A stretch of 64,000 bases of DNA from contig CAVWGE010000004.1 in NCBI GenBank assembly GCA_963754385.1, positions 118,780 through 182,779 on the forward strand. Direction: 5' to 3'. This document shows, one piece after another, positions 11,753-55,895 of the stretch (the stretch's first letter is position 1; each line of letters starts with the position of its first letter). A program made the position numbers and the translations under genes. This DNA is from an uncultured Chloroflexia bacterium (GTDB taxonomy: Bacteria > Chloroflexota > Dehalococcoidia > GIF9 > UBA5629). The notes under the pieces were generated by a model. It was not told where the DNA came from and searched no databases. It worked only from the letters and a program-made list of their open reading frames with translations.

Positions 11753-13288
11753 CTACTCCATAGGGGCGGCTGCTTGAGTGCCCTTCTGAAGGCGTAATGG
11801 AAGGAAAAAAGCCGGTATTACGCCAATTGAAATGATTATCGCCGATATAATATATTCCGTCTGAAAGGCAAAAACCGCGGCTCTTGCACTAGCCAATAGA
11901 TAGAGCAGGTAGACCGCTGTCTGCCTGGCTACCTCCAACGTCTGCCCCGCTTGCATAAGTATGACTTGTACCATTGAAATAAAATGCATGGTCTCGGAAG
12001 AACTGGGAGTAAGTGTCTGAGAGATGACGGCGAGGTTTGTTTTCTGGAAATTGGAAAGCATAGTAGCAAAGATGGCAATGCCGAGCGAAGCGAAAACAGT
12101 CCGGCTAACGTTCATTATCGACGAGGCTTGCGCCGTCATTTTCTGCTCTACTGAGGCTAAGGCATAGGTCATTACAGGCATCATGGCCAGCCCTATTCCC
12201 ATGCTTCTGACGAAAAGCATCAACCTTAGCAGATTATCCGGGGTGGTTACGTCTACAGTACGCATCCAAAAAGTGGCGGCACCCGCTACAATTAGCCCGG
12301 CCACAACCGGTATCTTGGGTCCTATTTTGTCATAAAGGCGTCCAGCCAGCGGCATAGTGACAATCGAGCCGAAAACGGCGGGGAGCATCAGTATGCCAGT
12401 CTCCAATGCTGTCAGGCCCCGAACGTTCTGTAGAAAGAGTGGCAGTAGAAAAACAATAGAAAAGAGGCCTATTGTGGTTACAAAAGTCAATCCTGTAGCC
12501 ATCGAGAAGCCACGGTTTTTGAATATACGAAGGTCAAGCATTGGCTGCGCTGATCGCAGTTCCAGCGTAATCCAAGTTATAAGGCAGATTCCACCCAGTA
12601 CCAACAGCCCCATGATGCGCACATCGTCCCATCCCCAGGTAGGAGCATAAGAAAGAGCATAAAGTACTGAACTGAATCCCATAGCCGCGAGCGCGAATCC
12701 TTTAAAATCGAAGCCTGCCGGCATCGCTGGAGTCTCCTGAAGCCAGGCCAAGCCCAGTAGAATGGCTACAAGCACTACGGGCACGTTCACATAGAAACAC
12801 ATGCGCCACGACCAATCGGTTACCAGATAGCCGCCGAGGGTTGGACCTATGGCGGGCCCAAGCATCATAGGGATACCGAAGATAGCCATAGCTGTGCCGC
12901 GCTGTTCGGATGGCACATTGAGAAAAAGCAGAGTCATGGCTGTCGGAGTGAGAAGACCACCGGCCAGACCCTGTAATATGCGGAATATTATCAGCGAGTC
13001 TGCGTTCCAGGAGAGACCGCATAAAATCGATCCAAATAGGAAACTTGCCTGGCTAAATATGTAGACCCTTTTGGTGCCGAAACGGTTACACAGGAAGGCG
13101 GCTGCCGGCGTAGTAATTGCTGTCGCCATTAAATATGCGGAAATAATAAGCTGGGCATGGTCTGTAGGAACATTGAAGACCGCCATGATATGCGGCAAGG
13201 CAATGTTCATAATTGTCTGGTCGAGTATGACCATGAAGGTGCCGGCTACGGCAACCAGTAAGATTTTCCACTGAGTAGTCTGTGGCAT
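11753..13288 (-). CDS. MFS drug:H+ antiporter (14-TMS EmrB/QacA-like)
   Basis: 511 aa with about 14 hydrophobic segments and MFS motifs; last gene of the tetR-adaptor-hlyD-MFS operon. Confidence 0.85.
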   Translation of the reverse strand: MPQTTQWKILLVAVAGTFMVILDQTIMNIALPHIMAVFNVPTDHAQLIISAYLMATAITTPAAAFLCNRFGTKRVYIFSQASFLFGSILCGLSWNADSLIIFRILQGLAGGLLTPTAMTLLFLNVPSEQRGTAMAIFGIPMMLGPAIGPTLGGYLVTDWSWRMCFYVNVPVVLVAILLGLAWLQETPAMPAGFDFKGFALAAMGFSSVLYALSYAPTWGWDDVRIMGLLVLGGICLITWITLELRSAQPMLDLRIFKNRGFSMATGLTFVTTIGLFSIVFLLPLFLQNVRGLTALETGILMLPAVFGSIVTMPLAGRLYDKIGPKIPVVAGLIVAGAATFWMRTVDVTTPDNLLRLMLFVRSMGIGLAMMPVMTYALASVEQKMTAQASSIMNVSRTVFASLGIAIFATMLSNFQKTNLAVISQTLTPSSSETMHFISMVQVILMQAGQTLEVARQTAVYLLYLLASARAAVFAFQTEYIISAIIISIGVIPAFFLPLRLQKGTQAAAPME

Positions 13289-14067: not shown

Positions 14068-15753
14068 CTAGTCAGCGCTGTTCAGTGACCTGGCGGGCGT
14101 ATTGCCTGTTCCCAGTAATACTTTTTCACCTTCATTCAAGCCAGATAAAATTTCAGACTGAGTTCGGCTCTGTAAACCGACTTCCACCTGCCGCTGCTCT
14201 ATCAGACCTGTTTTGTCGTCTTTAACCACGTAAACCCAACTCTCAGCCCCCTGTAGATGTAAGGCACTGTTGGGTATTAGTAAAACATCTTTATGGCTGT
14301 CGACCAATATCTCAGCCGTAGCGGTAAGCCCGCCTGTGAGATATGTAGCATCCTTGGGGTCGAGTGCAATTTCAACCTTATAGGTAGCGGTGCCTGTCTG
14401 TAACGTCCCATATGGAGAAATGAATTGCACCTTGCCATCGAATACCTTGCCTGGAAAGGTATCAATCAGAATGGTTGCTTTCTGACCTTTTGATATCTTG
14501 ACCACATCTATTTCATCGACTATACCGGTCATCCTGACTGCGCTCTTGTTAGCGAGTTTCAGCACATAGGTATCAATAGGCAAGCCTTCTGGCGAGTATC
14601 TCTGGGTTATCATATCGCCCTCGTGTAGATTTACGTCCACCACCTCTCCATCAAATGGTGCCACTAGTTCAGTCTTGAGTAGCGCTTGCTTGGTACGCTC
14701 AAGGTTTATCAATGCGGTATGGACGTTTATATCGTAATCGCGCTCCGCCTTTAGATTAAGTCCCTGGCGGAAGGTTGAAACGTTCTCTTGAAGTATCTTA
14801 TCTCCAAGTTCAAGGTCGTGCATAGCCAATCGAAGTGTCTCGTTCAACTGTATGGCATCAAAGTCTTTCTCACCTGTCATTTTACTGAGTTCTTCAAGTT
14901 CAGTAAGCGCTTCATTTATTACGGTGAAAGTGGTGCAGGTATCTGGATATGTATAAGCACTAAGTGAACGAGTAGTTTGTTTAAGGACTGTCTGAGTGTC
15001 GGGCATCTCCATTAAGAGAGCTCTCAGCATTTTTGCTGCTTGGTCATAGCTGCCATCCTTAATTTGTTCTTGGATTGTGGACAGGCTATCCATTTCAGCT
15101 GTAAGCCTGTCAATGGCGATATCCACATCATGGCTTGAAATCACCGGCTGGTTCCACCCATTGAGCTCAGTCCTAAGGTTGCGGAATTGAGGGTCGATAT
15201 ATACTTTTTTCGCTGCATCGATATCGTATTTTGCCAGCGCTATTTGAGAAGCTACTTCTTCAAACCTGTCATCAGCTAGCAGAGACAGAGCCTTCTGAAT
15301 TTCCTGCGTAGCGAATTCAAACCGGAGTAAAGCTATTGTATCAGTGTCGGTATAGAAAGACGGCGCGCGTGTAACACCGCAGCAGACTGTCTGAACCACA
15401 TTGTTTATTGCCAGTTCCAGTGCATATTGTGCAGACTCTACCGTCATCTTCTGGGTTGTATCGTCCAATTTGGCAAGCAGAGTGCCGGCTTTAACCACGC
15501 TGCCTTTCTCGACGTATACCTTTTCAATTCTGGCACTATAAGGAGGAGTGAACATGGTTGTATCGAAATAGAGATTGACCGCGTCCGGCATTTCAATATA
15601 GCCATCCGCATCTATATTTACCTCGAGGTCACCTCGTTCCACCGAAGCTATTGTCCTCATTTCAGTGATGGGTTTATTAGAGGCGCAGCCAGTTAGCGCG
15701 ATTGCTACTATCAGCAGGAAAGCTGATACGATGGTAGATGTTCTTTTACTCAT
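14068..15753 (-). CDS. Lipoprotein, efflux periplasmic adaptor-like with long coiled-coil insert
   Basis: 561 aa, lipoprotein signal (LTGCAS). The C-terminal 150 aa resemble HlyD-family beta domains, and the middle is coiled-coil rich. Confidence 0.7.
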   Translation of the reverse strand: MSKRTSTIVSAFLLIVAIALTGCASNKPITEMRTIASVERGDLEVNIDADGYIEMPDAVNLYFDTTMFTPPYSARIEKVYVEKGSVVKAGTLLAKLDDTTQKMTVESAQYALELAINNVVQTVCCGVTRAPSFYTDTDTIALLRFEFATQEIQKALSLLADDRFEEVASQIALAKYDIDAAKKVYIDPQFRNLRTELNGWNQPVISSHDVDIAIDRLTAEMDSLSTIQEQIKDGSYDQAAKMLRALLMEMPDTQTVLKQTTRSLSAYTYPDTCTTFTVINEALTELEELSKMTGEKDFDAIQLNETLRLAMHDLELGDKILQENVSTFRQGLNLKAERDYDINVHTALINLERTKQALLKTELVAPFDGEVVDVNLHEGDMITQRYSPEGLPIDTYVLKLANKSAVRMTGIVDEIDVVKISKGQKATILIDTFPGKVFDGKVQFISPYGTLQTGTATYKVEIALDPKDATYLTGGLTATAEILVDSHKDVLLIPNSALHLQGAESWVYVVKDDKTGLIEQRQVEVGLQSRTQSEILSGLNEGEKVLLGTGNTPARSLNSAD

Positions 15754-16642: not shown

Positions 16643-17056
16643 ATGGAGGGCGCATTAGTGAATTCTAATATCTTCAAAGTCGGGGCGGGCATAGTTGTGA
16701 TGGCGGTAGTGCTGTTTAGTTCTTGTTTGGTGACGCCGGAGCCGAAGGGGAACAAGCCGCCAGTAATCTCAAGTCTTGAAGCTGAATATGTAGATGTTTA
16801 TCCTAGGGGTGGCTCTGACATCAGATGCATTGCTTCTGACCCTGAAGGCGATGCGGTGCAGTTCAACTGGTCATCCACTGGTGGCACCTTAACTGGCGAA
16901 GGGCCTACTGTTACCTGGGAGTCACCAAATGATTACGGTGACTATCATATTATGGTAATTGTTAAAGATGTGAACGGAGGTAGTGCCGAAGCTACCTTAA
17001 CCATAAGCGTGATTCCCAGACCAAGTTCGGGCTGTTGTGGTCGATCAAGGAAATGA
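16643..17056 (+). CDS. PKD/Ig-like domain lipoprotein
   Basis: Start moved to the internal Met giving a lipoprotein signal (LFSSC). One repeat of type PPVISSL..C.A.DP.GD...W...GG..G..V.W..P...G.Y.I.V.V.D..GG, shared with the 17551 ORF. Confidence 0.6.
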   Translation: MEGALVNSNIFKVGAGIVVMAVVLFSSCLVTPEPKGNKPPVISSLEAEYVDVYPRGGSDIRCIASDPEGDAVQFNWSSTGGTLTGEGPTVTWESPNDYGDYHIMVIVKDVNGGSAEATLTISVIPRPSSGCCGRSRK

Positions 17057-17090
17057 GATAGGTTAAGTGTCGAAAATAGAGTGAGAGATA

Positions 17091-17471
17091 ATGAAAAGAG
17101 TGGCCAGGATTGTAGCTGTTGTTTTTGTGCTGGCCTTACTCGCTAGTTTTGCTGGGTGTGCCAAATCAGGTACACACGATGGCGGTGAGCTGAAGATACT
17201 GAGCCATAGCATGACGGTGCACGAGTTCAGTGGTGGCGTGCCTCAAAGTACAGCCGTGGTCATCGGCAGAGCTCAGAATGTTGGCAATGTCACCATAAAC
17301 TTTGCTACTATAGCAGTTAATTTCTATGATAAAAACAAGAATCTCATAGCTACGGCATCAGCTGTTAAGCAGAATCTGCAGCCAAACGAGGTGTGGGACT
17401 TTAATGTTAAGACTGTTGGCCCCGATGCGTGGAAGAGTATAAGCAATGATATTGCGGCTAGCACGGAATAA
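17091..17471 (+). CDS. Small lipoprotein (DUF4352-like)
   Basis: Lipobox LASFAGC followed by a predicted beta-rich domain of about 100 aa. Confidence 0.55.
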   Translation: MKRVARIVAVVFVLALLASFAGCAKSGTHDGGELKILSHSMTVHEFSGGVPQSTAVVIGRAQNVGNVTINFATIAVNFYDKNKNLIATASAVKQNLQPNEVWDFNVKTVGPDAWKSISNDIAASTE

Positions 17472-17550
17472 TACTATTGATGGTATTAGGGGGGTTGCTC
17501 TTATAACCGACAGTTTTGAGTTGAGATATACTTTTATGTAAGGGGGGTAA

Positions 17551-18702
17551 ATGAAAATGAGCATTTTCAAAAGCGGCTTCGGTATGGTCCTGGTTATGCT
17601 TACTGTTGTGGCCGTGATGGGTGCTGCCTGCGGTCCACAAGAGACGCCACCACCGACGCCTGGCGGTAATCAACCGCCGGTAATCTCCAGCCTGGTGGCA
17701 GAGAATATGCAGCTTTATCCATCGGGCAATACTGAGATTCAGTGCATAGCCCAGGATGCAGATGGCGACCAGATAGATTTTAAGTGGGCATGCACAGGTG
17801 GTGATTTCAGCGGTGCTGGCCCCATCGTTATCTGGAAGGCTCCGCCGGATTACGGGGCTTACACCATCACGGTCACTGTGGAGGACGGCAAGGGTGGTTC
17901 GGCACAGGCTAGTTTACCCATAACGGTTGGCGCCAATCAGTCGCCGGCAATTTCCAGCCTGGTTGCCGATCCTTCTGGGTTATTGTATGGAGGCAGGACG
18001 ACGATTACCTGCATTGCTACTGACCCTGACGGTGATGCGGTCAGTTATAGCTGGTCAGCCAGCGAGGGGAGCATCAGTGGCGTAGGCAACAAGGTTACCT
18101 GGGTAGCGCCGAATAAAGGCGGAAATTTTAACATTACAGTCATACTCAGCGATGGCAAAGGCGGCGAAACCACAGGAAATATAATGGTTACCGTGGCGGC
18201 AGCTGCAATGACAGTAACTATCACGCCGGTTGCTCAGGAGACTGGCACGGTACGTTCAGATGGGGCTACAGACAATTCTAGGACATGGGCTGGTGACGAT
18301 GAGAAGGACAGAGGTTATTGTGCCTTCTGGAGCTTTGATGTTTGGAGCTTGCAGGGGAAGAAAATACAAAACGCCAGTCTTAAGTTCCCTAACCCCAGAA
18401 TAGCTGGGGACCCATTCTCCAGCACTACTGGACTTAAAGGGCTGCGATTCTGGAAGGTCAGGTATGGTGATGAGCTGCCGGCATTTCAGTACACCGGCAG
18501 CAATCTGTGGAACGTCCCCGTTCAGACCGCCCCACCGACCGAATTAGATATAACTCAAGAAATAGTTAATGTTGCTGCTGCGGCTGCTACCCGCTTCCAG
18601 GTAGAAGCTCTATTCCTGAAGGGGTACAACGGCAACCATGTCGCCGAATTTATTGAATGGCCAGAAGGGGTCGTTCTTGAGGTTACCTATTCGGAGAAGT
18701 AA
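17551..18702 (+). CDS. PKD/Ig-like repeat lipoprotein
   Basis: Lipobox (MGAAC), two tandem PKD-like repeats homologous to the 16643 ORF, then a roughly 170-aa C-terminal domain. Confidence 0.65.
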   Translation: MKMSIFKSGFGMVLVMLTVVAVMGAACGPQETPPPTPGGNQPPVISSLVAENMQLYPSGNTEIQCIAQDADGDQIDFKWACTGGDFSGAGPIVIWKAPPDYGAYTITVTVEDGKGGSAQASLPITVGANQSPAISSLVADPSGLLYGGRTTITCIATDPDGDAVSYSWSASEGSISGVGNKVTWVAPNKGGNFNITVILSDGKGGETTGNIMVTVAAAAMTVTITPVAQETGTVRSDGATDNSRTWAGDDEKDRGYCAFWSFDVWSLQGKKIQNASLKFPNPRIAGDPFSSTTGLKGLRFWKVRYGDELPAFQYTGSNLWNVPVQTAPPTELDITQEIVNVAAAAATRFQVEALFLKGYNGNHVAEFIEWPEGVVLEVTYSEK

Positions 18703-45528: not shown

Positions 45529-45571
45529 TAACGTGTGAGTTCCGCTGAGTATTTGCCGGACTTTTTGGAGT

Positions 45572-45647
45572 GAAGTTGTAGCTCAGTTGGGAGTGCGTTT
45601 GATTTGCAGTAAAAAGGTAGCGGGTTCGAATCCCATCAGCTGCACTA
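45572..45647 (+). pseudogene. Degenerate duplicate of tRNA-Ala (anticodon-position TGC, 3' CTA), likely pseudo-tRNA
   Basis: 76-nt cloverleaf-alignable copy of the 46507 tRNA, including about 12 bp of shared 5' flank (gactttttgg). It carries mismatches in the acceptor (2-71 A.G), D (12-23 T.T), anticodon (30-40 G.A) and T (50-64 C.A) stems, A3-T70 instead of the alanine G3-U70 identity pair, and CTA instead of CCA. Confidence 0.55.
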
Positions 45648-46247: not shown

Positions 46248-46506
46248 AGTTCCTCTTTTCTCTCGGAGGCTAGTTGGAAATTATGGCCGGCATATTTTGG
46301 CAATGCGGTTTCACCTTTTGCGGTATTCTCAGAATCAAAGCACGGGTGAGCAATAATATCCAGGGTTTCTAACTTTCTCTGGCGGGATTTCTTTCTGAAC
46401 GCAAACCGAAGTTGGCATGACGGTTAATTATACCATGCTTTGTCAAATTATCGGACGGGTGCAGGTGGTTGAGTTTGGTTGAGTTTTTTGCTAGACTTTT
46501 TGGCGT

Positions 46507-46582
46507 GGGGCTGTAGCTCAATTGGGAGAGCGTTTGACTGGCAGTCAAAAGGTAGTGGGTTCGAATCCCATCAGCTCCACCA
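46507..46582 (+). tRNA. tRNA-Ala (anticodon GGC)
   Basis: Folded by hand: 7-bp acceptor stem with the G3-U70 alanine identity pair, D stem gctc/gagc, anticodon loop ctGGCag, T arm gtggg-ttcgaat-cccat, discriminator A, encoded CCA. Total 76 nt. Confidence 0.9.
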
Positions 46583-46668: not shown

Positions 46669-47565
46669 TTGATTGAAGGATTTCTGTTATCCTGCAAAGT
46701 AGAGAACAAGTCTCCTGCCACAATAAGCTTCTACAAGAACATCCTCGGTAAGTTCGAATGGTATCTCAGTAAATTCGGTATTGAAACGATTGATGCCAGT
46801 ATAATCAGGAACTTTCTAGGATACGTAAAAGACACTGAAAATAGATGGGATAGCACTAATGCGAGAGCTAATAGGATGGTTTCTCCTACAACAGTAAAAA
46901 GCTATTACATCAGTCTATCTGCCTTATTTACCTGGGCAATTGAAGAGCAGTTAATCACGTCTAATCCCATGGCTACAGTGAAGAGGCCTAAGTTACCCAA
47001 TAAATCAGTAAAAGGATGTGAACCTGAGACTTTAAAGATATTATTAAACGCTTTTAATGGTATGAGTTTGAATGATTTACGCAATAAAGCTATGCTCCTC
47101 ATGTTCTTAGATACTGGCTTAAGGTTATCTGAACTTGCAGGTCTGACTTTATCTGATATCAATATTGAGAAAGGCATCATCAAAGTCATTGGTAAAGGCA
47201 ATAAAGAAAGATACGCTAGAATAGGAGTCAAGACACAGAAAGCATTATGGAATTATTTAGCTCATAGACCAGTGGAAAAGGAGTATGTATGGTTGGGAAA
47301 AGGCTATGGCAAAATGACAGTAGATGGCATTGCTCTTGTTATTAGAAACTTGGGTAAGAGATTAGGGATTAGATTGTCACCGCATAGGTTGAGACATAGT
47401 TTTGCTATAATCTTCCTAAGGAACGGAGCTAATTCGTTTGAGCTACAGATAGCGTTAGGCCACACTACCTTAGAAATGACCAGGAGATATACACAGGCAT
47501 TAGGTTTTGATGATGTGTTCAAGAGGCATGTGGTGGCGAGTCCGGTAGATAGATTGATACGTTAG
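46669..47565 (+). CDS. Tyrosine-type site-specific integrase
   Basis: N-terminal SAM-like core-binding domain (LIEGFLLSCKVENKSPATISFYKN) and catalytic domain with R..(HRLRHSFA)..Y (RRY). The track ORF starts inside the tRNA; start moved to an in-frame TTG at 46669 because no ATG is available, so the boundary is approximate. Confidence 0.8.
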   Translation: MIEGFLLSCKVENKSPATISFYKNILGKFEWYLSKFGIETIDASIIRNFLGYVKDTENRWDSTNARANRMVSPTTVKSYYISLSALFTWAIEEQLITSNPMATVKRPKLPNKSVKGCEPETLKILLNAFNGMSLNDLRNKAMLLMFLDTGLRLSELAGLTLSDINIEKGIIKVIGKGNKERYARIGVKTQKALWNYLAHRPVEKEYVWLGKGYGKMTVDGIALVIRNLGKRLGIRLSPHRLRHSFAIIFLRNGANSFELQIALGHTTLEMTRRYTQALGFDDVFKRHVVASPVDRLIR

Positions 47566-47779
47566 ACTATGATGCGGTAGAGGCACATAAGATATCATCG
47601 CCCATTGATAGCCTCAAATCTTGACTGTATTGTGATAGCAAACCCAACTTAAGAAATGGTATAAATATTGGGGCAGGTCATCATGAGTAGCGATACAATA
47701 ATCTATACAATAATCTTGAGTAGCGAACTATATGCTAAGTCAGCGTCATTTATAAAAGTAAAGGCCGGTACTGAAAGTC

Positions 47780-48049
47780 ATGAACGAAGAAAACACTTGT
47801 GAGAACGCAATAGAACAGGAAGAACAAATCAGAGAAAGAATGGATGCTAACGGAATTAGGTGGCGGAAAATCTATGTTGGAGGCGGTGCTCACGCTAAGA
47901 ACTGGATACAACAGAGTAAAGAAATTTACGGCGAAGAAAATTTACAAATTGAAGAAGTAGAGTCGCCTGGCCCTAAATGCTACGAGGAGAGTAGCGAAAA
48001 ACAACTCAGAATCTGGGTAAGAATAAATAAAGCAACCCCTGTCACATAG
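47780..48049 (+). CDS. Hypothetical acidic protein (island cargo)
   Basis: 89-aa ORF, no family recognised. Confidence 0.3.
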   Translation: MNEENTCENAIEQEEQIRERMDANGIRWRKIYVGGGAHAKNWIQQSKEIYGEENLQIEEVESPGPKCYEESSEKQLRIWVRINKATPVT

Positions 48050-48463: not shown

Positions 48464-48500
48464 TATTATAAATCAGTCCTTAGTCTCTGTACATACCTTT

Positions 48501-48533
48501 GACCTGCCCCCAATACTTATACCACTTCTTAAC
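48501..48533. repeat. R repeat copy 1 (gacctgcccccaatacttataccacttctta)
   Basis: One of four 30-33-bp near-identical copies (48501, 48835, 51335, 55769). The reverse complement reads GTGGTATAAGTATTGGG, an extended -10-like motif, positioned 6-40 bp upstream of minus-strand ORFs. Confidence 0.55.
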
Positions 48534-48566
48534 AAATACTCATAAGGACGACAAATCAAAGCAATT

Positions 48567-48818
48567 CTAAACTCTACCATTTGTTATTGACCTCAGTTTA
48601 TCCTTTCTCTTAAGTCGCTTAATTCTATGCTCCATTCTAGAGGCATGCGCTTTATCGTCACAATCCCACTTGGCTAGCAATTTAACAGGCCTTCTTCCTC
48701 TAGTGTATTTAGAGCCAGTCCCTGAGTTGTGTTGCCTTATCCGCTCATCAATATCATTACTGATTCCTGTATAAAATGTTCCATCATTACACTCAACTAT
48801 ATAAACACACCAATTCAT
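48567..48818 (-). CDS. GIY-YIG (URI-domain) nuclease family small protein
   Basis: Motifs VYIVECNDGTFYTGISNDIDERIRQHN and KYTRGRRPVKLL; 83 aa. Flanked on both sides by R repeats. Confidence 0.8.
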   Translation of the reverse strand: MNWCVYIVECNDGTFYTGISNDIDERIRQHNSGTGSKYTRGRRPVKLLAKWDCDDKAHASRMEHRIKRLKRKDKLRSITNGRV

Positions 48819-48834
48819 TACAATTTCCTATAGT

Positions 48835-48867
48835 GACCTGCTCCCAATACTTATACCACTTCCTAAT
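48835..48867. repeat. R repeat copy 2
   Basis: gacctgctcccaatacttataccacttcctaat, 16 bp upstream (minus strand) of the GIY-YIG start. Confidence 0.55.
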
Positions 48868-48894
48868 CTAGTCCCACAAGCACAATAGCCTCAG

Positions 48895-48966
48895 GCGCAG
48901 GCTTTGGGATTTGATGATGTATTCAAGAGGCATGTGATGGCGTCACCGGTGGATAGGTTGATGTAG
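48895..48966 (+). pseudogene. Integrase 3'-terminal remnant b (..QALGFDDVFKRHVMASPVDRLM*)
   Basis: About 72 bp that are roughly 85% identical to the last 24 codons plus stop of the 46669 integrase. An in-frame TAG lies 9 codons upstream, so no upstream integrase body remains. Confidence 0.6.
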
Positions 48967-49039
48967 GACTAGTCTGTAGGGCAGGTCAGTTATCTGAGTG
49001 AATTAACGTGCGTCATATTATCACCTATTTTGCTACTTG

Positions 49040-49678
49040 TTAAGCAACGCGTATACGAAATCGAAGCGTTGAGAATATCATAGAACCAATGATGGCAGTG
49101 GCAAAAATACCAATTGACACAATAGGATTTAGGTATGATATGCCCATTGCAATCACGAAAAGGGCTATACCAACCATTACTGTCATATTACGTATTCTTA
49201 CTTCATGCAAGTCAATGTCTGTATCTACTAGTCGATATCTTCCCGTGGCATATGTCCACTTTATGTAGCACATAAGCATACAGGCCAGAAAATTGCCCCC
49301 ATATAATAGGACTGGCAACTGTTGTCCCATATACTCTCCTAGAAGAGACGTTGAAAAGGGTAGTAGCGCCGTAAACATCAGAAATAGAATGTTTATCCAG
49401 ATCAGCATGGTGTCTGCACGTTTGATGAAACTGAACTGCCAATGATGCATGCACCACATATAACCTAGCACTAAAAACGTAACGGCGTAGCTTGCGAATT
49501 TTGGCCACATATCAAGTAACTGCTTAAATTCCTGGTGCATTGAGCTTTCCCTAAACACAGGAACACCGAGCCCCAATACCAACAGCGTCATTACGATAGC
49601 GAAGACCCCATCGGTTAGAGCCTCGAGTCTTTTTGGAGATAATGCAATTTTTGTCACTTGCTGTTCTGAATTAGTCAT
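49040..49678 (-). CDS. TMEM175-like (DUF1211) putative cation channel
   Basis: 212 aa, 6 TM segments. N-terminal signature RLEALTDGVFAIVMTLLVL matches the RxxxFSDGVFAIAITLL filter helix of TMEM175/DUF1211 proteins. Confidence 0.65.
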   Translation of the reverse strand: MTNSEQQVTKIALSPKRLEALTDGVFAIVMTLLVLGLGVPVFRESSMHQEFKQLLDMWPKFASYAVTFLVLGYMWCMHHWQFSFIKRADTMLIWINILFLMFTALLPFSTSLLGEYMGQQLPVLLYGGNFLACMLMCYIKWTYATGRYRLVDTDIDLHEVRIRNMTVMVGIALFVIAMGISYLNPIVSIGIFATAIIGSMIFSTLRFRIRVA

Positions 49679-49844
49679 AGTTTACCCCCTTATTTAGAAT
49701 TGTCTGGACTATTAGAATCACCTGTAGTGCTCCCATGTTACATCCCTATATATTAGCCGTCAACGAGAAGCAGTTAGTAATTTGTAAATACTAATAAAAT
49801 TGAGGATCTGCCTTCGGGTCAGTTACGTAATGGATAATTCGATA

Positions 49845-49913
49845 GCATTAGGATTTGATGATGTGTTTAAGAGGCATGTGCTGGCTAGTCCGGTGGATAG
49901 GCTGGTGAGGTAA
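49845..49913 (+). pseudogene. Integrase 3'-terminal remnant c (..IALGFDDVFKRHVLASPVDRLVR*)
   Basis: 69-bp homologue of the integrase C-terminus plus stop, isolated in non-coding DNA. Confidence 0.6.
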
Positions 49914-50111
49914 GGTAACTGAGTGTGTTCGACGTCAGCAAAAATTGGACACATTGTGGATACTAGGTAATGGACAGTCTGGGGTTTGCTGCTGCCGCCT
50001 GAGAAGACTATTGCTGATGGATGCAGAAATACCGCAGTTCATTCAACATTAAGGCAGAGATTTGAAAGGAGTCCAAGACCCCCCTCATCTCACTACCCGT
50101 ACCTCTTTAGC

Positions 50112-50564
50112 TTACTCAGATGGTTGCTTTTTGGCCTTGAGCCTTCTCGCCTCCTGATCCTCGGCTATCGCCTGTTCTCTAGTCAAGTCGGCTTTCCTTC
50201 TCGCCTGCTTTTTGACTAGTCGCCCAGCTTCCTCAGTAGCGCGCTTCTCTGATCCCTTGGCTTTCCTTGCTTTCAAAGCCTTTTCAATCGCCTCTTCTCT
50301 AGTCAAGTCGGCTTTCCTTCTCGCCTGCTTTTTGACTAGTCGCCCAGCTTCCTCAGTAGCACGCTTCTCTGATCCCTTGGCTTTCCTTGCTTTCAAAGCC
50401 TTTTCAATCGCCTCTTCTCTAGTCAAGTCGGCTTTCCTTCTCGCCTGCTTTTTGACTAGTCGCCCAGCTTCCTCAGTAGCGCGCTTCTCTGATCCCCTGG
50501 CCTCCTTTAGTGATTGTTCTTCTTGGTCTCTCATCGTTCTACCTATCAACATTGAGATAATCAT
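50112..50564 (-). CDS. Basic tandem-repeat protein (three 40-aa repeats KARKAKGSEKRATEEAGRLVKKQARRKADLTREEAIEKAL)
   Basis: ORF spans three near-perfect 120-bp DNA repeats. Lys/Arg/Glu-rich helical repeats with a short hydrophobic N-terminus. Coding status is supported only by the maintained frame across the repeats. Confidence 0.5.
   Translation of the reverse strand: MIISMLIGRTMRDQEEQSLKEARGSEKRATEEAGRLVKKQARRKADLTREEAIEKALKARKAKGSEKRATEEAGRLVKKQARRKADLTREEAIEKALKARKAKGSEKRATEEAGRLVKKQARRKADLTREQAIAEDQEARRLKAKKQPSE
50161..50520. repeat. Near-perfect 3 x 120-bp tandem direct repeat
   Basis: Units 50161-50280, 50281-50400 and 50401-50520 are identical except for about 1 nt internally and divergent outer edges. 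Confidence 0.85.
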
Positions 50565-50805
50565 GGAACCGGCGGTAAATCACTTTGTTGCAGCAACTTG
50601 CCCCAAATTATTGTACTACCTTTTATGTTAGGGTTGTCAAGACATGAACGGTTAGTACAGTGTACTCCACCCTATTAATCACGCGACCAGTAAGTTCGCT
50701 ACATTATGGCTCAAGAATTGTGGAGACAGCTTGATGCCGCAGAGGCTATTGGGACATACTACACTGATGATGACGAATAGGTACTGTCAAGCGGTAGGAT
50801 GCTTG

Positions 50806-50859
50806 GATGCGGTGGAAGCGCATAAGAAGTATTCACCTATTGATAACATTAAAATATAG
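50806..50859 (+). pseudogene. Divergent integrase C-terminus-like remnant f (DAVEAHKKYSPIDNIKI*)
   Basis: Shares the pattern D-x-V-x-x-H-x-x-x-SP[IV]D-x-[IL]-x-[IR]-stop with the integrase tail (DDVFKRHVVASPVDRLIR*). Starts the 560-bp segmental duplication. Confidence 0.4.
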
Positions 50860-50958
50860 CTTCTTCATATCTGGACTAGTTCTCCGGGGTGCAATCACTC
50901 AAAATACCCCTCGTCAATCCACTACTGCTCAATTTAACCCTGTATTGATCTAATTTCC

Positions 50959-51330
50959 TCAAGCTTCTGTTTCCTCTATATTAAGCTCTTCATCCCCAGA
51001 TACCTCGGTTAAACTCTCTTGCTCTGTTTCTACCTCTTCCCTCCCTTGCTCTTGATAGGCTGAAAAGTACTCTGCGATATTAATGTCACGATAGTACACT
51101 TCACAGACCAACCTATTGTGTTGTACACCGTCCGGTGATCCCAATTCAACCTTCTTGTTGTGGATAAGGCCAGAGAGCTTTTGTTCGACAGCTATCGCTC
51201 CTTTCCCACTCTTCGGAGCAGTGTAACCTTTCACTTGCACGAGATTTCCTGTTTCATCTCCGAGTTCCCACTTGGGAGATACCTCGAAAGTGTTTCCGTC
51301 AATAACTGCTACTACGGTGAATGTCTCCAA
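50959..51330 (-). CDS. SNase-like (thermonuclease/OB-fold) protein, probably non-catalytic, with acidic C-terminal tail
   Basis: VIDGNTFEV and VQVKGYTAPKSG align to the SNase DGDT and RLxGIDTPE regions, but with Asp-to-Asn and Asp-to-Tyr substitutions at metal ligands. TTG start; paralogue at 55393. Confidence 0.5.
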   Translation of the reverse strand: METFTVVAVIDGNTFEVSPKWELGDETGNLVQVKGYTAPKSGKGAIAVEQKLSGLIHNKKVELGSPDGVQHNRLVCEVYYRDINIAEYFSAYQEQGREEVETEQESLTEVSGDEELNIEETEA

Positions 51331-51334
51331 TACT

Positions 51335-51366
51335 GACCTGCCCCCAATAGTTATACCACTTCTTAT
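51335..51366. repeat. R repeat copy 3
   Basis: gacctgcccccaatagttataccacttctta, 5 bp upstream (minus strand) of the SNase-like gene start. Confidence 0.55.
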
Positions 51367-51395
51367 GTTAGTCTACAAGAACAATAGCTTAGGAG

Positions 51396-51470
51396 CAGGC
51401 ATTGGGGTTTGATGATGTGTTTAAAAGACATGTAATGGCTAGTCCGGTCGACAAACCGAAGAGGTCATAA
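51396..51470 (+). pseudogene. Integrase 3'-terminal remnant d (..ALGFDDVFKRHVMASPVDKPKRS*)
   Basis: Homologous to the integrase tail through SPVD, then divergent; preceded by the same roughly 40-bp spacer sequence as remnant b. Confidence 0.55.
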
Positions 51471-51514
51471 AAATCCTCAAAGACAGACAGGTTGATGCTG
51501 AAGATGTTGCTCAG

Positions 51515-51781
51515 GTGCTCCAAGCTGTTAAGGAATTTCGGACTGAAAAGGAAACTCAATCGTATCACTTAGTTATGAAAAATGGCGCGGTTGATAATAT
51601 TGGGCAGGCTGCAAAGCCGCATCGTATCACTTTTAAGAATAATCCCCAGTTTTTGAGGCTTCTGGACAGCCTTATTCGAAAAGGTCGTGGGGTTCCAACT
51701 ATTCAAAGTGAGCTTAGGGCTAATGGTTATGACGTGCCTTACGCTACTTTGGGGAGGTGGATTCGAAAGCATAAGAAGTAG
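51515..51781 (+). CDS. Small HTH protein (transposase/resolvase-type HTH)
   Basis: C-terminal GRGVPTIQSELRANGYDVPYATLGRWIRKHKK resembles HTH_23/HTH_28 DNA-binding domains of IS-family transposases; no catalytic domain. Confidence 0.45.
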   Translation: MLQAVKEFRTEKETQSYHLVMKNGAVDNIGQAAKPHRITFKNNPQFLRLLDSLIRKGRGVPTIQSELRANGYDVPYATLGRWIRKHKK

Positions 51782-51863
51782 GAGAAATATCAGTCAGTGG
51801 TATTTAGGATGCTATGCCACCGTATTCATCACGTCGTTCAAAGCGTTAATGTAACTAACCTGC

Positions 51864-53120
51864 TTACATGGACTCGCTTGTTTTAGTCCGCCTTAGAATT
51901 ACACTTAAGATAAGACCCATAACACTGACAGCAGCACTGACCAGGAAAGCCACATTATAGCTGCTGGTAACATCAAAAATATAACCAGCCAGAAACGGAC
52001 CGGCGGCTGCCCCGATGCAATAACCAAAGTTAATAACCCCCAGAATCAAGCTATGCGACCTCAGCCCAAAAAGCTCTGCCACTAGAGGCGACGCTGACGC
52101 AGCACAGCCCCCAGTGGCAAAACCAAAGATAGCAGCAGACAGATACAGCGCCCATGCCTCTGTGGCTGGTATTAACCAGAACAAAGCAGCTGTCATCAGA
52201 ACAAAGCCGATAATAAAAACCTGCCTATTCCCGATTCTATCGGCAGCCCAACCCAACACCAACCTGCCGATAATACCCGCGCCGCCAGCAGTAGCCAAAA
52301 TGTTGGCCGCAGTGGCAGCTGAAAATTCCAGGTCAGTGGCATACGGTGCAATATGCACCAGGATGGCATACCATGAAAATCCCAAACAAAGGTACATGCT
52401 CAAAGCAAGCCAGAATTGTCTCCCGGAAGCTGCCTCCCTGAGGGAAAATACCTTGGCGCTCCCTTTCAGCTCCATTTCTTCTTTACTCTCCCCGTGGGGC
52501 GTTAGACCCATCTGGGCCGGGTCACGCCTTAGAAGCTGGGCAAAAAGTATAACAGCAACCAAAGTCATGCTGCCCAGTATGATGTAGGATACACGCCAAT
52601 CATAAATAGAGATAAGCCAATTAGCCAACGGTGGTGCAATCAATCCGCCTACTCCTGAACCGGCTATGACAATACCGGTCATCGCACCTCTTCTCTTAAC
52701 AAACCATCTAGCTACTGTTGATGCTATTGGGACAAATGCTCCACTCATGCCGGTGCCTATTATCACTCCATAAAACAGATATAGCTGCCAGAGAGCATTG
52801 GTTTGTGACATCAGCAAGTAGCCTAGACCAAAAATGAAGCCACAAACCGAAATCACTATCCGAGGGCCAAGCCTATCGTTAACCCTCCCCACAGCAATAG
52901 CCAGCAAGCCTTGTATAATCCAAAAAACTGAAAAAGCGCCTGAGGTTACTGCTCTGGTCCAGCCAAGGTCGGTCAGCATTGGCTTGAAGAAGATACCAAA
53001 CGTGAATTGCATGCCAAGCATCAACAGCATAATAAAGAAGGCAGCTACCACCACGATATAGCCATAAAAGAACCGTGGTTTAGCCCTGGTAGGGGATTGG
53101 TAAACTCTCTGATTAGGCAT
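51864..53120 (-). CDS. MFS transporter (oxalate/formate antiporter-like)
   Basis: 12 predicted TM helices and MFS motif between TM2 and TM3 (GRVNDRLGPR). Start placed at the internal Met; the track ORF extends to 53162. Confidence 0.85.
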   Translation of the reverse strand: MPNQRVYQSPTRAKPRFFYGYIVVVAAFFIMLLMLGMQFTFGIFFKPMLTDLGWTRAVTSGAFSVFWIIQGLLAIAVGRVNDRLGPRIVISVCGFIFGLGYLLMSQTNALWQLYLFYGVIIGTGMSGAFVPIASTVARWFVKRRGAMTGIVIAGSGVGGLIAPPLANWLISIYDWRVSYIILGSMTLVAVILFAQLLRRDPAQMGLTPHGESKEEMELKGSAKVFSLREAASGRQFWLALSMYLCLGFSWYAILVHIAPYATDLEFSAATAANILATAGGAGIIGRLVLGWAADRIGNRQVFIIGFVLMTAALFWLIPATEAWALYLSAAIFGFATGGCAASASPLVAELFGLRSHSLILGVINFGYCIGAAAGPFLAGYIFDVTSSYNVAFLVSAAVSVMGLILSVILRRTKTSESM

Positions 53121-53340
53121 ACTAAAACCAAGCGCAGCTAAGTGCTGTGCCTTTAAGGGCAACTTTCACTACTGAAACCCAATTATAGCAGCACCGACCT
53201 GTGCGTTAATACTTTCCGCGTCATTTTGTTACACTCGTTACTAGCCCACCCTGCTGTAGAGCTTTGGCTGGACTTGCACACATCCCGATTGAACACCAAC
53301 AGACATAGTCTCTATAGTGAATGATTTCACAAAGCTATTT

Positions 53341-53520
53341 CAGCTTAACGGTGACTTGTAGAACTTCAGGCTATATTGGAAAGTAACTGACCCGCTTGTG
53401 CTTAGCTACTGACCAGCCTGTAAAGCTTCAGACTATCCCCAAAGTTAACTGACCTGGTATGTCCTAGCTAGTAACTCGCTTGTAATGCTTCAGGCAATCC
53501 TCAAAGGTTATACTTCTGGT
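53341..53520. repeat. Degenerate roughly 62-bp tandem repeat array (about 3 units) in non-coding DNA
   Basis: Units of form aactgacc-gcttgt-cttagct / actgacc-gcctgtaaagcttcag-c-at-c-caaagtt recur three times with substitutions. Confidence 0.5.
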
Positions 53521-53661
53521 ATACCGGAGAACCATACTCAAATCAGATCAACCGCCAAGATACATAATATCTAGAGTTGAAAGCCAGCGGGTTAAAACTG
53601 GCGGACGTAATAAGAGGACAGGGCTAAAGCAGAAGAGGGATAAACCATAATGCTAAAAGAG

Positions 53662-54015
53662 TTAAACCCTCTGTCTGTGGTTATTAAAGATAACTCCGAG
53701 CCTGTTAACCCTTATGTTAACCCCAAATTGACTACCTGCTCTTACCGTGGAGGTAGCGCAGGTTTTTATTTGAAGCGAAAATTGATTTCCTGAATTGTTG
53801 GTTAAAAACCTATCGATGTCCGTATCTCCACCTGGGCCAGGCCTAATTTGGCATTTAAGGTGCTTGTGTGCAATCTCATCAAGCAATGATTCGAAGGCAT
53901 GTCCTTTCACTGGGCGTAGAGTATTAGGGTCAGATACTACTACTTCATCAACAACGTCCCAAGACACGTTGACCCCTATTCTATCCATGAATTCTGAAAA
54001 TATATCCCTTGCCAT
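53662..54015 (-). CDS. Hypothetical protein (island cargo)
   Basis: 117-aa ORF; no motif recognised with confidence. Confidence 0.35.
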   Translation of the reverse strand: MARDIFSEFMDRIGVNVSWDVVDEVVVSDPNTLRPVKGHAFESLLDEIAHKHLKCQIRPGPGGDTDIDRFLTNNSGNQFSLQIKTCATSTVRAGSQFGVNIRVNRLGVIFNNHRQRV

Positions 54016-54177
54016 TCAAATATTCCTTCGGAGGTCTACAACACTGATGATGAAAATACCGATCAGGGTCAGATTCAACAGCGGTGCCTTACTATGGCCT
54101 AGCTCAAGGAATATTGTACCGCTCGGTATTTCGTAATGGAATGCCACTACCGTATGACTAGTAATTAGACGATCGGT

Positions 54178-54213
54178 TTGCCTAACAATTAGTCGGTTTG
54201 ATTATGAATCCGT
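54178..54213. repeat. Direct repeat DR-A copy 1 (acgatcggtttgcctaacaattagtcggtttgatta)
   Basis: About 36 bp, roughly 80% identical to 55166-55200. The two copies bracket a 1-kb AT-rich segment containing two small TM-protein genes. Confidence 0.5.
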
Positions 54214-54354
54214 TACTCGAAGCTAAGTGTTAAGCAGACTGAAGCTGAACGTTAAGCAAGACCTTACGAGAGGGAATCAGTAGGTCTAAATGGTATTCAC
54301 TGCCTATGCTTGTAGGAGCAGAGTGATTTCATAAAGAAATAGGAAGTATTTGTA

Positions 54355-54645
54355 TTATTCAACCTGTCTTCTGATCCACGCAGCGACAAAAGCTAATATC
54401 AAAAAAAGGATCCCAAATCCAATGAACATTAGTTGAATGGTAACAAAAGATGCAACTGACAAGATATCAAAGCTTACTAATACTAAATTAGCGATACCAC
54501 ATGCGAAGCAAATACATCCAAGAACGAATAGTACCCATGCCGCTGTTGTAGCTAGATTTTTAAGCGAGTTCGGCACTACTATCCTCTGACGCTGTTCCTG
54601 CAATTTACGCTCCTCATGTACTCTTCTAGTCTTTACTTCTGTCAT
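54355..54645 (-). CDS. Small membrane protein (2 TM)
   Basis: 96 aa with a charged N-terminus then two hydrophobic helices; markedly AT-rich. Confidence 0.4.
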   Translation of the reverse strand: MTEVKTRRVHEERKLQEQRQRIVVPNSLKNLATTAAWVLFVLGCICFACGIANLVLVSFDILSVASFVTIQLMFIGFGILFLILAFVAAWIRRQVE

Positions 54646-54693
54646 TACTATTCCCTCACAACAATTTCTCAGTCACCATATTAATTTAGGCGA

Positions 54694-54906
54694 TTATCCC
54701 TTAAGGACAAGTAAACTGCCGATTAAATAGGCAATTCCTACGAAAAGCAGAACAATGCTATACAGCCATATCGCCTTAGCTCTATCTTGTTTCTTGTCTT
54801 CTGATGCTGATAGATAACGACCAAAGTGGAGCATAAATGCTCCGATTCCAATTATGACCCATGCTATGCCTATTATAATGAGCTTGTAGATTATATTAGC
54901 ATCCAT
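54694..54906 (-). CDS. Small membrane protein (2 TM)
   Basis: 70 aa, two hydrophobic helices separated by a KKQDRAKA loop. Confidence 0.4.
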   Translation of the reverse strand: MDANIIYKLIIIGIAWVIIGIGAFMLHFGRYLSASEDKKQDRAKAIWLYSIVLLFVGIAYLIGSLLVLKG

Positions 54907-55165
54907 CTTGATTGCCTCCGATATCTAGAGGTTACAATCCAAGTTTTCCTTGTTGCCAGGGATAATCGCATTAGTTTATCTTAACTCACTATATTACAGC
55001 ATAAAATGGTAATAAATAAAAGAGCAAGATGCTTAGTTATATTCGTTGGCTAGAGTAAGATCCGATCATGTGAAATACTGCTAGACAAACTAACCTTCTG
55101 ATTAAGAATCAAAAGGCCAAATCAAAGTCAGTCTAGGGATACTCGGCTTTCACTTAACAATCAAA

Positions 55166-55200
55166 CGATCGGTTTGCCTACCAATCAAACGGTCAGATTA
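55166..55200. repeat. Direct repeat DR-A copy 2
   Basis: acgatcggtttgcctaccaatcaaacggtcagatta, directly abutting integrase remnant e. Confidence 0.5.
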
Positions 55201-55202
55201 CA

Positions 55203-55232
55203 GCCAGTCCGGTAGATAGGCTGGTACGTTAG
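55203..55232 (+). pseudogene. Integrase 3'-terminal remnant e (..ASPVDRLVR*)
   Basis: 30 bp matching the last 9 codons plus stop of the integrase. Confidence 0.5.
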
Positions 55233-55239
55233 AGACTTA

Positions 55240-55293
55240 GATGCAGTGGAAAGTCATAAGAGGTATGGGCCAGTGGATAATATTAAAATATAG
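55240..55293 (+). pseudogene. Divergent integrase C-terminus-like remnant g (DAVESHKRYGPVDNIKI*)
   Basis: Paralogue of remnant f; begins the second copy of the 560-bp segmental duplication. Confidence 0.4.
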
Positions 55294-55392
55294 CTATGTT
55301 ATGTCGGGACTAGTTCTCTTGGGTGCAATCACTTAAAATACCCCTCGTCAATCCACTACTGCTCAATTTAGCCCTGTATTGATCTAATTTCC

Positions 55393-55776
55393 TCAAGCTT
55401 CTGTCTCCTCTATATTTAGCTCTTCATCCCCAGATACCTCGGTTAAACTCTCTCGCTCTGTTTCTACATCTTCCCTCGCTTGCTCTTGATAGGCTGAAAA
55501 ATACTCTGCGATATTAATACCGCGATAGTATACTTCACAGATCAACCTATTGTGTTGTACGCCGTCCGGTGATCCCAATTCAACCTTCTTGTTGTGGATA
55601 AGGCCAGAGAGCTTTTGTTCGACAGCCATCGCTCCTTTCCCACTCTTCGGAGCAGTGTAACCTTTCGCTTGCACGAGATTTCCTGTTTCGTCTCCGAGTT
55701 CCCACTTGGGGGATACCTCGAAAGTGTTTCCGTCAATAACTGCTACTACGGTGAATGTCTCCAATACTGACCTGCC
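55393..55776 (-). CDS. SNase-like protein, paralogue of the 50959 ORF
   Basis: About 93% identical to the first copy over the shared length. The track ORF (to 55818) reads through R repeat copy 4 to an upstream ATG, so the true start is uncertain. Confidence 0.5.
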   Translation of the reverse strand, partial: GRSVLETFTVVAVIDGNTFEVSPKWELGDETGNLVQAKGYTAPKSGKGAMAVEQKLSGLIHNKKVELGSPDGVQHNRLICEVYYRGINIAEYFSAYQEQAREDVETERESLTEVSGDEELNIEETEA

Positions 55777-55794
55777 CCCAATAGTTATACCACT
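55769..55794. repeat. R repeat copy 4
   Basis: gacctgcccccaatagttataccact, followed 50 bp later by the attR tRNA fragment. Confidence 0.55.
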
Positions 55795-55843
55795 GAAGGT
55801 GATTATACCACTAAGCATTTTGTAACGGAATGTCTCGTTTGAC

Positions 55844-55895
55844 TCATAGTCAAAAGGTAGTGGGTTCGAATCCCATCAGCTCCACCATCTTTGGG
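55844..55895 (+). repeat. attR: partial direct repeat of tRNA-Ala 3' portion (anticodon stem to CCA)
   Basis: cgtttgact[cat]agtcaaaaggtagtgggttcgaatcccatcagctccacca matches tRNA positions 25-76 except for 3 nt in the anticodon loop. The 40-nt 3' part is identical, so crossover must lie 3' of the loop. Confidence 0.8.

Follow-up and report, generated by a model that had tools for sequence, protein, structure and literature searches.

Why one short repeat should stand directly upstream of several cargo genes in a tRNA-linked genomic island, and close to the seams of that island, is the question raised by a locus of an uncultured Chloroflexia bacterium placed in the Dehalococcoidia. The locus lies in a 64,000-nucleotide stretch of contig CAVWGE010000004.1, which was analysed as a whole and is referred to below as the window. 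Exact matching of the 26-mer GACCTGCYCCCAATASTTATACCACT over the window recovered the four plus-strand copies listed by a first-pass annotation of the sequence, at 48501, 48835, 51335 and 55769, with no further match at up to three mismatches and a chance expectation of 0 (100 shuffles). That annotation read the repeat as an extended -10 promoter that also marks module boundaries of a composite island. Comparison with other genomes moves it from an island-specific promoter and boundary element to the end of an IS3/IS407-like insertion sequence (IS): judged from the sequences, the window copies are very probably solo right inverted repeats (IRRs), left behind as relics by an IS3-family IS with IS407-type termini, and the fuller explanation, which joins IS-end relics, island scars and a possible outward promoter, is likely.

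The insertion sequence to which the repeat belongs

Whether the repeat is confined to one element family was addressed by searching beyond the window (compared loci from the fetched genome and metagenome DNA carry L-numbers). The exact pattern of ~22–23 nt was found in nine Dehalococcoidia/Chloroflexota genomes and 63 metagenome contigs, and no tRNA lay near the repeat in the nine genome loci first found by the exact-pattern scan. A restriction to the island family is thereby overturned, the repeat being a dispersed IS terminus that is often still attached to a transposase gene. In every copy, conservation starts sharply at the TG of TGACCTG, the outward flanks are unrelated, and the inward sequence continues with TGACCTGCCCCCAATAnTTATACCACTTnTTAAGTTAG. 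Such a sharp TG boundary, together with 35–80 nt conserved across unrelated genes, is the behaviour of a transposon end and is unlike promoter conservation.

The complete element is represented by two 1210-bp copies, at 273–1482 of L008 and 532–1741 of L003, which are 99.7% identical to each other. Their ends begin with TGACCTGCCCCCCGAAAAGCAGTCCAG in the left inverted repeat (IRL) and TGACCTGCCCCCAATACTTATACCAC in the IRR, the fuller terminal sequences being TGACCTGCCCCCCGAAAAGCAGTCCAGTTTTAATGTTAGACTGG and TGACCTGCCCCCAATACTTATACCACTTGTTAAGTTAGTCCC, respectively; both open with TGACCTGCCCCC and form imperfect inverted repeats that remain similar for ~45 nt, in keeping with the 5′-TG...CA-3′ ends of IS3-family elements. 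Between them lie two open reading frames (ORFs) of a DDE transposase: OrfA (92 aa) matches HTH_Tnp_1 (PF01527; E 2e-18), while OrfB (269 aa) matches rve (PF00665), rve_3 (PF13683) and HTH_21, scores 242 bits against NF033516 'IS3 family transposase' (cut-off 160), and lies in the -1 frame relative to OrfA in both copies. With its stop 30 nt from the tip, orfB has its last codons, which end in PPAPEVVLVGLT and the stop, inside the IRR. Full-length copies were recognized in L003, L008, L023, L040, L047, L052, L053 and L061, and the element, 1209–1220 bp long (one of 1306 bp), recurs in more than 12 contigs with different flanks. Two checks that could have overturned this identity left it standing: the full-length elements do end in the repeat, and its closest relatives are linked to IS3 transposase genes.

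Among the 88 IRR copies in all fetched DNA, 27 adjoin orfB, 4 resemble miniature inverted-repeat transposable elements (MITEs), and the remainder lack the IS body. The MITE-like units, which consist of IRL and IRR within 105–138 bp, occur in L002, L006, L009 and L036. In the bodiless copies, the inner break points are spread from 27 to 160 nt from the tip, implying independent truncation or decay. The window belongs at this end of the spectrum: it contains no transposase gene, and a profile search of it returned no convincing IRL (the sole candidate being a non-significant 24-nt tip at 48966–48988), which identifies its repeats as solo-IRR relics, i.e., fragments of the element.

Some observations do not sit easily with an IS origin. 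No target-site duplication was seen at ~10 full-length or 4 MITE-like copies, even with shifted boundaries allowed, in metagenome and metagenome-assembled genome (MAG) assemblies that are possibly mis-joined at repeats. No full-length IS was found at any of the window insertion points, and part of the conservation within the repeat is an artefact of how copies were gathered, namely by exact match to a 22-nt pattern, so that only N positions and flanks are informative. A further difficulty, the shared starting point of integrase remnants, is taken up with the island below. The absence of 3–4-bp duplications is in itself unexpected for a DDE IS3-family element and may be an assembly artefact or a result of recombination between copies. 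L066, which carries a full IS and at first seemed to have the outward flank of copies 3 and 4, was considered as their filled site and rejected, its flank being unrelated beyond ~5 nt and encoding no homologue. Per-position conservation was likewise set aside as a promoter test, since it is uninformative inside the 22-nt search pattern. Rfam gave no match for the repeat, and single-strand DNA folds of the 62–150-nt units were no more stable than shuffles (z +0.7 to +1.4), in contrast to what a REP-like or attC-like structure would show; a cassette (attC-like) site or an integrase arm site was dropped once the transposase linkage and the sharp TG boundary were recognized.

The inverted repeats of IS407A are TGACCTGCCCCCT and AGGGGGCAGGTCA, with 4-bp target repeats (PMC2877748), and the IRR of the IS3-family element ISPa32 is TGACCTGCCCCCAGTTTTAGTACCGCTGCCTAGTTAGTAGG (PMC7378034). 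Termini of the studied IS open with the same 12–13 nt, TGACCTGCCCCC(A/T), as those of IS407/IS407A and ISPa32 (PMC2877748, PMC7378034). Resemblance to IS407/IS407A and their relatives extends to a length of ~1.2 kb, an HTH OrfA and a DDE OrfB in 0/-1 frames, an IRR overlapping the end of orfB, and the presence of multiple and truncated copies. The IRR interior, however, reads AATAnTTATACCAC where ISPa32 has AGTTTTAGTACCGC, and the element departs from the IS407 group in its Chloroflexota/Dehalococcoidia host, in the lack of observed 4-bp target duplications (in metagenome/MAG assemblies), and in an A6G-type slippery motif, which was not found in it. Placement in the IS407 group is suggested by the inverted-repeat tips rather than by transposase phylogeny. 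The element is common in Dehalococcoidia/Chloroflexota MAGs and probably unannotated there, and its identification helps the annotation of uncultured Chloroflexota genomes.

A second IS3-family member was encountered in the sister island L075, where two 99.7%-identical copies lie at 11821–12965 and 16716–17862. These copies were taken as candidates for the studied element and turned out to be a different one, with ends TGTATACTGCTCCCC and GGGGTGCAGTACA and an OrfB 23% identical to that of the 1210-bp IS; tRNA-Ala islands collect IS3 elements generally.

IS-end relics and probable deletion scars in the tRNA-Ala island

The island is anchored at a tRNA-Ala(GGC) gene (46507..46582, plus strand; ARAGORN; Rfam tRNA 69.5 bits), whose 3′ 52 nt, at 46531–46582 on the same strand, constitute attL as a member of a direct-repeat family. 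It is followed by an intact tyrosine integrase gene (46669..47565, plus strand; Pfam Phage_integrase E 1e-31; NCBIfam Xer-like matches below cut-offs), whose C-terminal tail, ending in QALGFDDVFKRHVVASPVDRLIR and the stop, is encoded at 47494–47565, and 246 homologues of which were found beside tRNA-Ala at syntenic positions. At the other end of the island, attR (55836..55887, plus strand; 94% identity; also recovered by blastn) repeats the 52 nt of the tRNA-Ala 3′ end. With an integrase beside the tRNA, a direct repeat closing the island, and different cargo in the syntenic loci L057, L073, L075 and L076, the locus has the features of a tRNA-integrating island.

Within the island, the conserved unit begins one base before the 26-mer, with the T of TGACCTG at 48500, 48834, 51334 and 55768, and extends inward for 27–80 nt depending on the copy. 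Copy 1 (48500..48532, minus strand) corresponds to IS positions 1178–1210, and its tip at 48500 faces a PNPOx-like gene (48071–48437/48463). Copy 2 (48834..48897, minus strand; IS ~1134–1210, with 80% identity over 80 nt by blastn) retains the C-terminal codons of OrfB, ~12 in number, reading PAPEAIVLVGLD before the stop. Copy 3 (51334..51395, minus strand; IS ~1136–1210, of which alignment of the full IS recovers 1164–1210) includes decayed OrfB 3′ codons, and copy 4 (55768..55794, minus strand) is reduced to IS positions 1184–1210. Copies 3 and 4 lie within a duplication of ~560 bp that also holds the downstream gene, and the arrangement around copy 4 is identical in the sister island L057. 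A fifth relic, inverted (AACTTAAGAAATGGTATAAATATTGGGGCAGGTCA), was revealed by profile search at 47646..47680 on the plus strand, ~80 nt past the stop of the intact integrase (nhmmer E 5e-8; blastn to IS positions 1175–1210); its tip at 47680 points toward an ORF at 47780–48049, and L073 shows the same inverted arrangement at 11056–11097. A possible, decayed IRR lies at 50596..50645 on the minus strand (nhmmer E 0.47 and 0.058), upstream of a repeat-protein gene (50112–50564), and reads TTGACA ... TACAAT on that strand.

The segment 47681–48499, which comprises the ORF at 47780–48049 and the PNPOx-like gene, is bracketed by inward-facing IRR tips at 47680 and 48500, as would remain from a composite transposon formed by two ISs in inverted orientation.

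Remnants of the integrase 3′ end, all on the plus strand, mark the interior of the island. Tail relic 2 (48898..48965; repeat family, alignment, tail profile E 1.6e-19) is fused on its left to the IS fragment of copy 2 at a shared CAGGC and is directly followed by a 24-nt IRL-like tip (GGACTAGTCTGTAGGGCAGGTCA; 48966..48988, plus strand), not significant alone by profile; the same junction of tail and IRL-like tip occurs in L076 at 12237–12262, and copy 2 and this tip delimit a 155-bp unit bounded by TGACCTGC and GCAGGTCA. Tail relic 4 (51396..51457) shows the same IS/tail junction as relic 2. Tail relic 3 (49842..49914; repeat family, alignment, tail profile) is not clearly preceded by an IRR, the badly decayed stretch at ~49800–49841 being a by-eye candidate that is not significant, and a partial relic 5 (55203..55233) has a small repeat before it (55159–55202) and ~60 nt of post-integrase sequence after it. 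The distance to the tail relic is 37 nt for copy 2 and 35 nt for copy 3, and copy 4 ends 41 nt before attR, so the proximity of the repeat to attR and to integrase tails pointed out by the first-pass annotation is confirmed, as is its view that the repeat marks module boundaries of a composite island, now in the sense of an IS-end scar. The 35–37-nt spacers are themselves IS sequence; in copy 2, the minus strand still spells out the decayed OrfB terminus.

At the junction, the IS reads CTCAGGAG-CAGGCGG and the integrase CCAGGAG-ATATACA-CAGGCATT, so that a short homology, CAGGAG...CAGGC, is common to the 3′ ends of orfB (antisense) and of the integrase gene. Sister islands at this chromosomal site are built of the same parts: L073, L057, L016 and L076 again combine tRNA-Ala and integrase with IRRs, IRR-tail units and integrase pieces of different lengths. 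In L073, whose integrase is 92% identical, an inverted IRR again follows the integrase, IRR-tail units occur twice, and the hypothetical gene known from the window is likewise abutted by an IRR. The fusion point of one of these units lies 12 nt deeper in the integrase gene, and junctions at two different points indicate that fusion was recurrent. In L076, integrase fragments of ~40 and ~138 codons accompany two extra att copies (12100–12262, 12427–12843, 15271–15310, 16775–16820), which provides direct evidence of tandem island accretion at this tRNA-Ala. The right end of L057 is like that of the window, with different cargo.

These features suggest a history in which IS copies inserted just upstream of cargo genes in tRNA-Ala islands, in the GIY-YIG case (see below) probably displacing the native promoter. 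ISs would have come to lie at the right ends of islands that piled up in tandem at tRNA-Ala, and deletions running from an IS to the next integrase, presumably helped by the CAGGAG...CAGGC homology, would have taken away the body of the IS together with the internal att site and the greater part of the integrase. The residue would be the scars that join an IRR to an integrase tail at module junctions, and the IRR-tail fusions do look like scars of deletions joining tandem tRNA-Ala islands. The mosaic structure of the island thereby finds an explanation as tandem islands fused by IS-associated deletions.

The tail relics at 48898, 49842 and 51396 and that of L057 (~8494–8540) begin at the same nucleotide ([CAG]GC/ATT[A/G]GG) after three unrelated upstream sequences. 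This is the remaining difficulty mentioned above, for the IS short homology accounts for the shared start in two of these tails, and not obviously for tail relic 3 and the L057 tail. A small repeat family containing CTCGGTATTTCGTAATGGAATGCC, ACGATCGGTTTGCCTAnCAAT and GGTCAGATTA in that order was also noted, at 54118–54204 and 55159–55202 in the window, ~7576–7610 and 8445–8494 in L057, 1531–1589 in L038 and 144–202 in L064; it abuts the partial tail relic 5 in the window and splits an integrase tail in L057.

Promoter potential of the right end

On the minus strand, the four copies read TGgTATAA[G/C], so their resemblance to an extended -10 element, on which the first-pass annotation was built, is genuine, with TG and the A at position 2 present in all copies. 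In all five window copies, the IRR tip is directed toward the start of a co-directional gene. Both copies of a hypothetical gene (50959..51330 and 55393..55764, minus strand), the 'SNase-like 1' and 'SNase-like 2' of the first-pass annotation, begin with TTG 3 nt from the tips of copies 3 and 4, respectively (4 nt from the repeat start as originally drawn). The ATG of the GIY-YIG domain gene (48567..48818, minus strand; Pfam E 9e-18), which is flanked by copies 1 and 2, lies 15 nt from the tip at 48834 (16 nt from the repeat start), and the PNPOx-like ORF lies 37 nt away at its first GTG and 63 nt away at its likely ATG, 48437, which has an AGGAGG Shine-Dalgarno sequence. These distances are essentially those claimed before. 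The names PPOX-like and GIY-YIG are supported by Pfam (PNPOx_N and GIY-YIG), whereas nothing stands behind 'SNase-like', the hypothetical gene having no Pfam match even at E<=1 and no NCBIfam match.

The sequences around two of these genes bear on the origin of their promoters. The GIY-YIG homologue in L076 (79% nucleotide identity) has a different upstream region with TTATAAT, and homology starts ~5 nt from the IRR tip; copy 2 has thus replaced the native promoter region of the GIY-YIG gene. The hypothetical gene is under purifying selection among its 4 copies (dN/dS 0.11–0.42, dS up to 0.35), and no similarity between copies 3 and 4 extends upstream beyond the 27-nt IRR. It is conserved in four islands, and its C-terminal tail is acidic. 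If the IRR element is active, transcription would start ~12 nt inside the tip, giving the hypothetical gene a predicted leader of ~15 nt that contains GGGGGCAGG; the earlier suggestion of nearly leaderless genes with TTG starts accordingly stands as to the start codons and gives way to a short leader.

Beyond the window, the perfect extended -10 sequence TGGTATAAT occurs in 33 of 74 non-redundant IRR copies (45%), and the TATAAy block is specific to the IRR, being absent from the IRL. Orientation was counted on flank-deduplicated copies, with genes called from codon usage after training on the long ORFs of the same sequences; this caller recovers the island genes correctly. Of the first genes within 400 nt outward of an IRR tip, 47 are co-directional and 12 convergent (p 5e-6), with ratios of 29:6 for solo or MITE copies and 14:1 for IS-attached copies and typical distances of tens of nt, whereas IRL ends show no bias (5:6). 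Naive ORF-based tests had been contradictory (29:10 versus 17:21), owing to the counting of antisense shadow ORFs, and were replaced. All in all, promoter activity is rather probable for the TATAAT variants of the family, and the chance that the window copies still promote transcription falls just short of even.

The promoter part of the explanation is weakened on several counts. The last base of a -10 element is normally a near-invariant T and, along with the A at position 2, is the most constrained; in the five window copies this position is G, G, C, C and A, and across the 74 copies it is T in 33, C in 32, G in 5 and A in 4, in solo and IS-attached copies alike. No -35 element is conserved across the IRR family, and the -35-like TTGTGG is merely the sequence coding for LVGLT and the stop in one OrfB subfamily. 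A sigma-70 consensus scan calls none of the window copies and finds instead a site of the PNPOx-like gene, TGTACA-17-TATAAT at 48493..48465, a better promoter-like sequence of its own between copy 1 and the ATG. The orientation result depended on the gene caller, and the bias itself could reflect insertion preference or selection against antisense transcription. At copy 4, TTATACCACT occurs twice, 18 nt apart (55785–55794, within the copy, and 55803–55812), and the second occurrence is a perfect TGGTATAAT on the minus strand. The same interval (55795–55835) also holds an ATG, at 55818, from which 141 aa can be read without interruption across the IRR and on into the hypothetical gene; L057 has an identical arrangement.

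Outward promoters in IS ends are well known, e.g., from IS6110 (IS3 family), ISAba1 and IS10 (pOUT). For IS3-family circles, junction promoters (Pjunc) are known from IS911, IS2, IS3 and IS150, and the classical Pjunc is a hybrid with its -35 in the IRR and its -10 in the IRL. By analogy with IS3-family biology, the IRR element of an active IS would read over the circle junction into orfA once IRR and IRL abut, which may be the reason for the IRR-specific block. The difference is that the whole putative extended -10 lies in the IRR of the studied IS, so that it would fire in the integrated state too. Within the IS407 group, outward promoters in the terminal parts of ISPam3 and ISPfe1 activate a promoterless tetA (PMC3281130); the present case is alike in having an IS end of the same group just upstream of a gene, oriented to it and with a -10-like sequence, and differs in that the predicted element is an extended -10 without a -35, that the window copies lack its last T, and that most copies of the studied IS are truncated relics rather than intact ISs. 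A literature search on solo IS3 inverted repeats as promoters returned nothing relevant.

Alternative readings and known counterparts

An alternative, which we rate somewhat below an even chance, is that the window copies are inert scars, i.e., IS-end relics without promoter activity in this genome, with TGGTATAAy having a role for the transposition machinery or the active IS alone. Transcription of the adjacent genes would then come from other promoters or from read-through, for instance from the TATAAT at 48470–48465 in the case of the PNPOx-like gene and, in that of the first hypothetical gene, from an MFS gene (51864–53162). Inertness accords with the missing T in the window copies and the lack of constraint at that position across the family, with the absence of a conserved -35, with a scan that passes over every copy yet finds an independent promoter-like site for the PNPOx-like gene, and with the separate perfect TGGTATAAT further upstream at copy 4. 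It is harder to reconcile with an orientation bias toward gene starts that is IRR-specific and includes solo copies, with maintained genes that begin 3–16 nt from the tip, with the unrelated sequences upstream of the IRR in copies 3 and 4, with the loss of the native GIY-YIG promoter region, and with the outward promoters shown experimentally in the IS407 group (PMC3281130). At the other extreme, solo IRRs might be selectively retained as exapted portable promoters, with the short homology between IS and integrase recurrently fusing tandem islands, which we consider unlikely. An IS would then land between a cargo gene and its native promoter, the IRR-borne extended -10, in origin the circle-junction promoter, would take over expression, only deletions keeping the IRR would survive when the IS body is lost, and pyrimidine/purine variation at the last -10 base would tune the expression of each cargo gene. 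The island also offers a testable case in which native promoters of its cargo genes have given way to IS ends.

The remaining alternatives concern what the repeat is. That some copies are still-mobile MITEs mobilized in trans by a full IS is improbable; the best candidate would be the 155-bp unit at 48834–48988 (bounds TGACCTGCTCCC and GGGCAGGTCA), with the integrase tail as passenger, which bears both kinds of tip, and IRL+IRR units of 105–138 bp do exist in four other loci and IRR-tail units recur in L073. However, the other four window copies lack a matching IRL, the one IRL-like tip measures just 24 nt and is non-significant by profile, target duplications are seen at no unit, the IRR-tail units found were confined to tRNA-Ala islands of this family, and the two junction points of L073 argue for repeated deletions rather than copies of one mobile unit. 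An integron-like cassette system, in which repeats and tails are recombination sites and the island's tyrosine recombinase captures modules at a site in its own 3′ coding end, with every module supplying a replacement tail, is very improbable. It would explain the coincident start of the tail relics at 48898, 49842, 51396 and L057 ~8540 after different upstream sequences, and the window holds no internal att copies, but the boundary is not fixed (fragments of ~40 and ~138 codons in L076, and unit b of L073 joined 12 nt further upstream), the shared CAGGAG/CAGGC explains coincident junctions through short-homology deletion, the repeat has neither dyad symmetry nor a stable fold, and no evidence of circular cassettes was found. 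Scarcely credible is a dedicated extended -10 promoter, or promoter-operator, that evolved within the island family to drive cargo genes. Its attractions are the TGgTATAA[G/C] reading and the gene that follows every window copy; yet the sequence is an IS terminus in many unrelated contexts, 27 times beside a transposase gene, the first nine loci all lack a tRNA, and the long conservation over unrelated genes with its sharp boundary fits a transposon end. As the origin of the repeat, an island-evolved promoter is refuted by the transposase linkage and the ends of the 1210-bp IS; of that reading, the suggestion of activity alone persists, as part of the IS-end explanation.

Read as IS-end relics, the window copies have counterparts in other systems. 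Promoter-bearing Correia elements of Neisseria exemplify IS-derived MITEs and solo inverted repeats. The studied IS likewise has short IRL+IRR derivatives upstream of genes, whereas four of the five window copies consist of IRR only, with variable inner ends and no target duplications, and behave as deletion relics. Tandem islands that target tRNA or tmRNA genes and contain integrase relics are known from the ssrA islands of Dehalococcoides, to which the window island is similar in its tRNA-adjacent integrase, attL/attR repeats, accreted integrase fragments and variable cargo; it differs in its tRNA-Ala(GGC) target, in the loss of internal att sites, and in junctions that are fusions of IS ends and integrase tails. 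Outward IS-end promoters, MITE derivatives, solo inverted repeats and IS-scarred tandem islands are all established phenomena, and the current understanding of IS biology is left unchallenged.

Two further features of the region deserve mention. The lysine/glutamate-rich minus-strand ORF at 50112–50564, which has no family match, contains three tandem 120-nt repeats (50135–50508), and its homologues in L002 and L036 have a clear IRR or MITE 33 nt upstream, so that the repeat-protein gene and the IS end seem to travel together. In addition, the window holds two tRNA-Ala genes, with TGC and GGC anticodons, 935 nt apart. They share 94-nt blocks (45552–45645 and 46487–46580) that are 86% identical and include upstream sequence, and after each tRNA gene comes another gene, either on the opposite strand or on the same one. 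The arrangement looks like a local duplication of the tRNA region.

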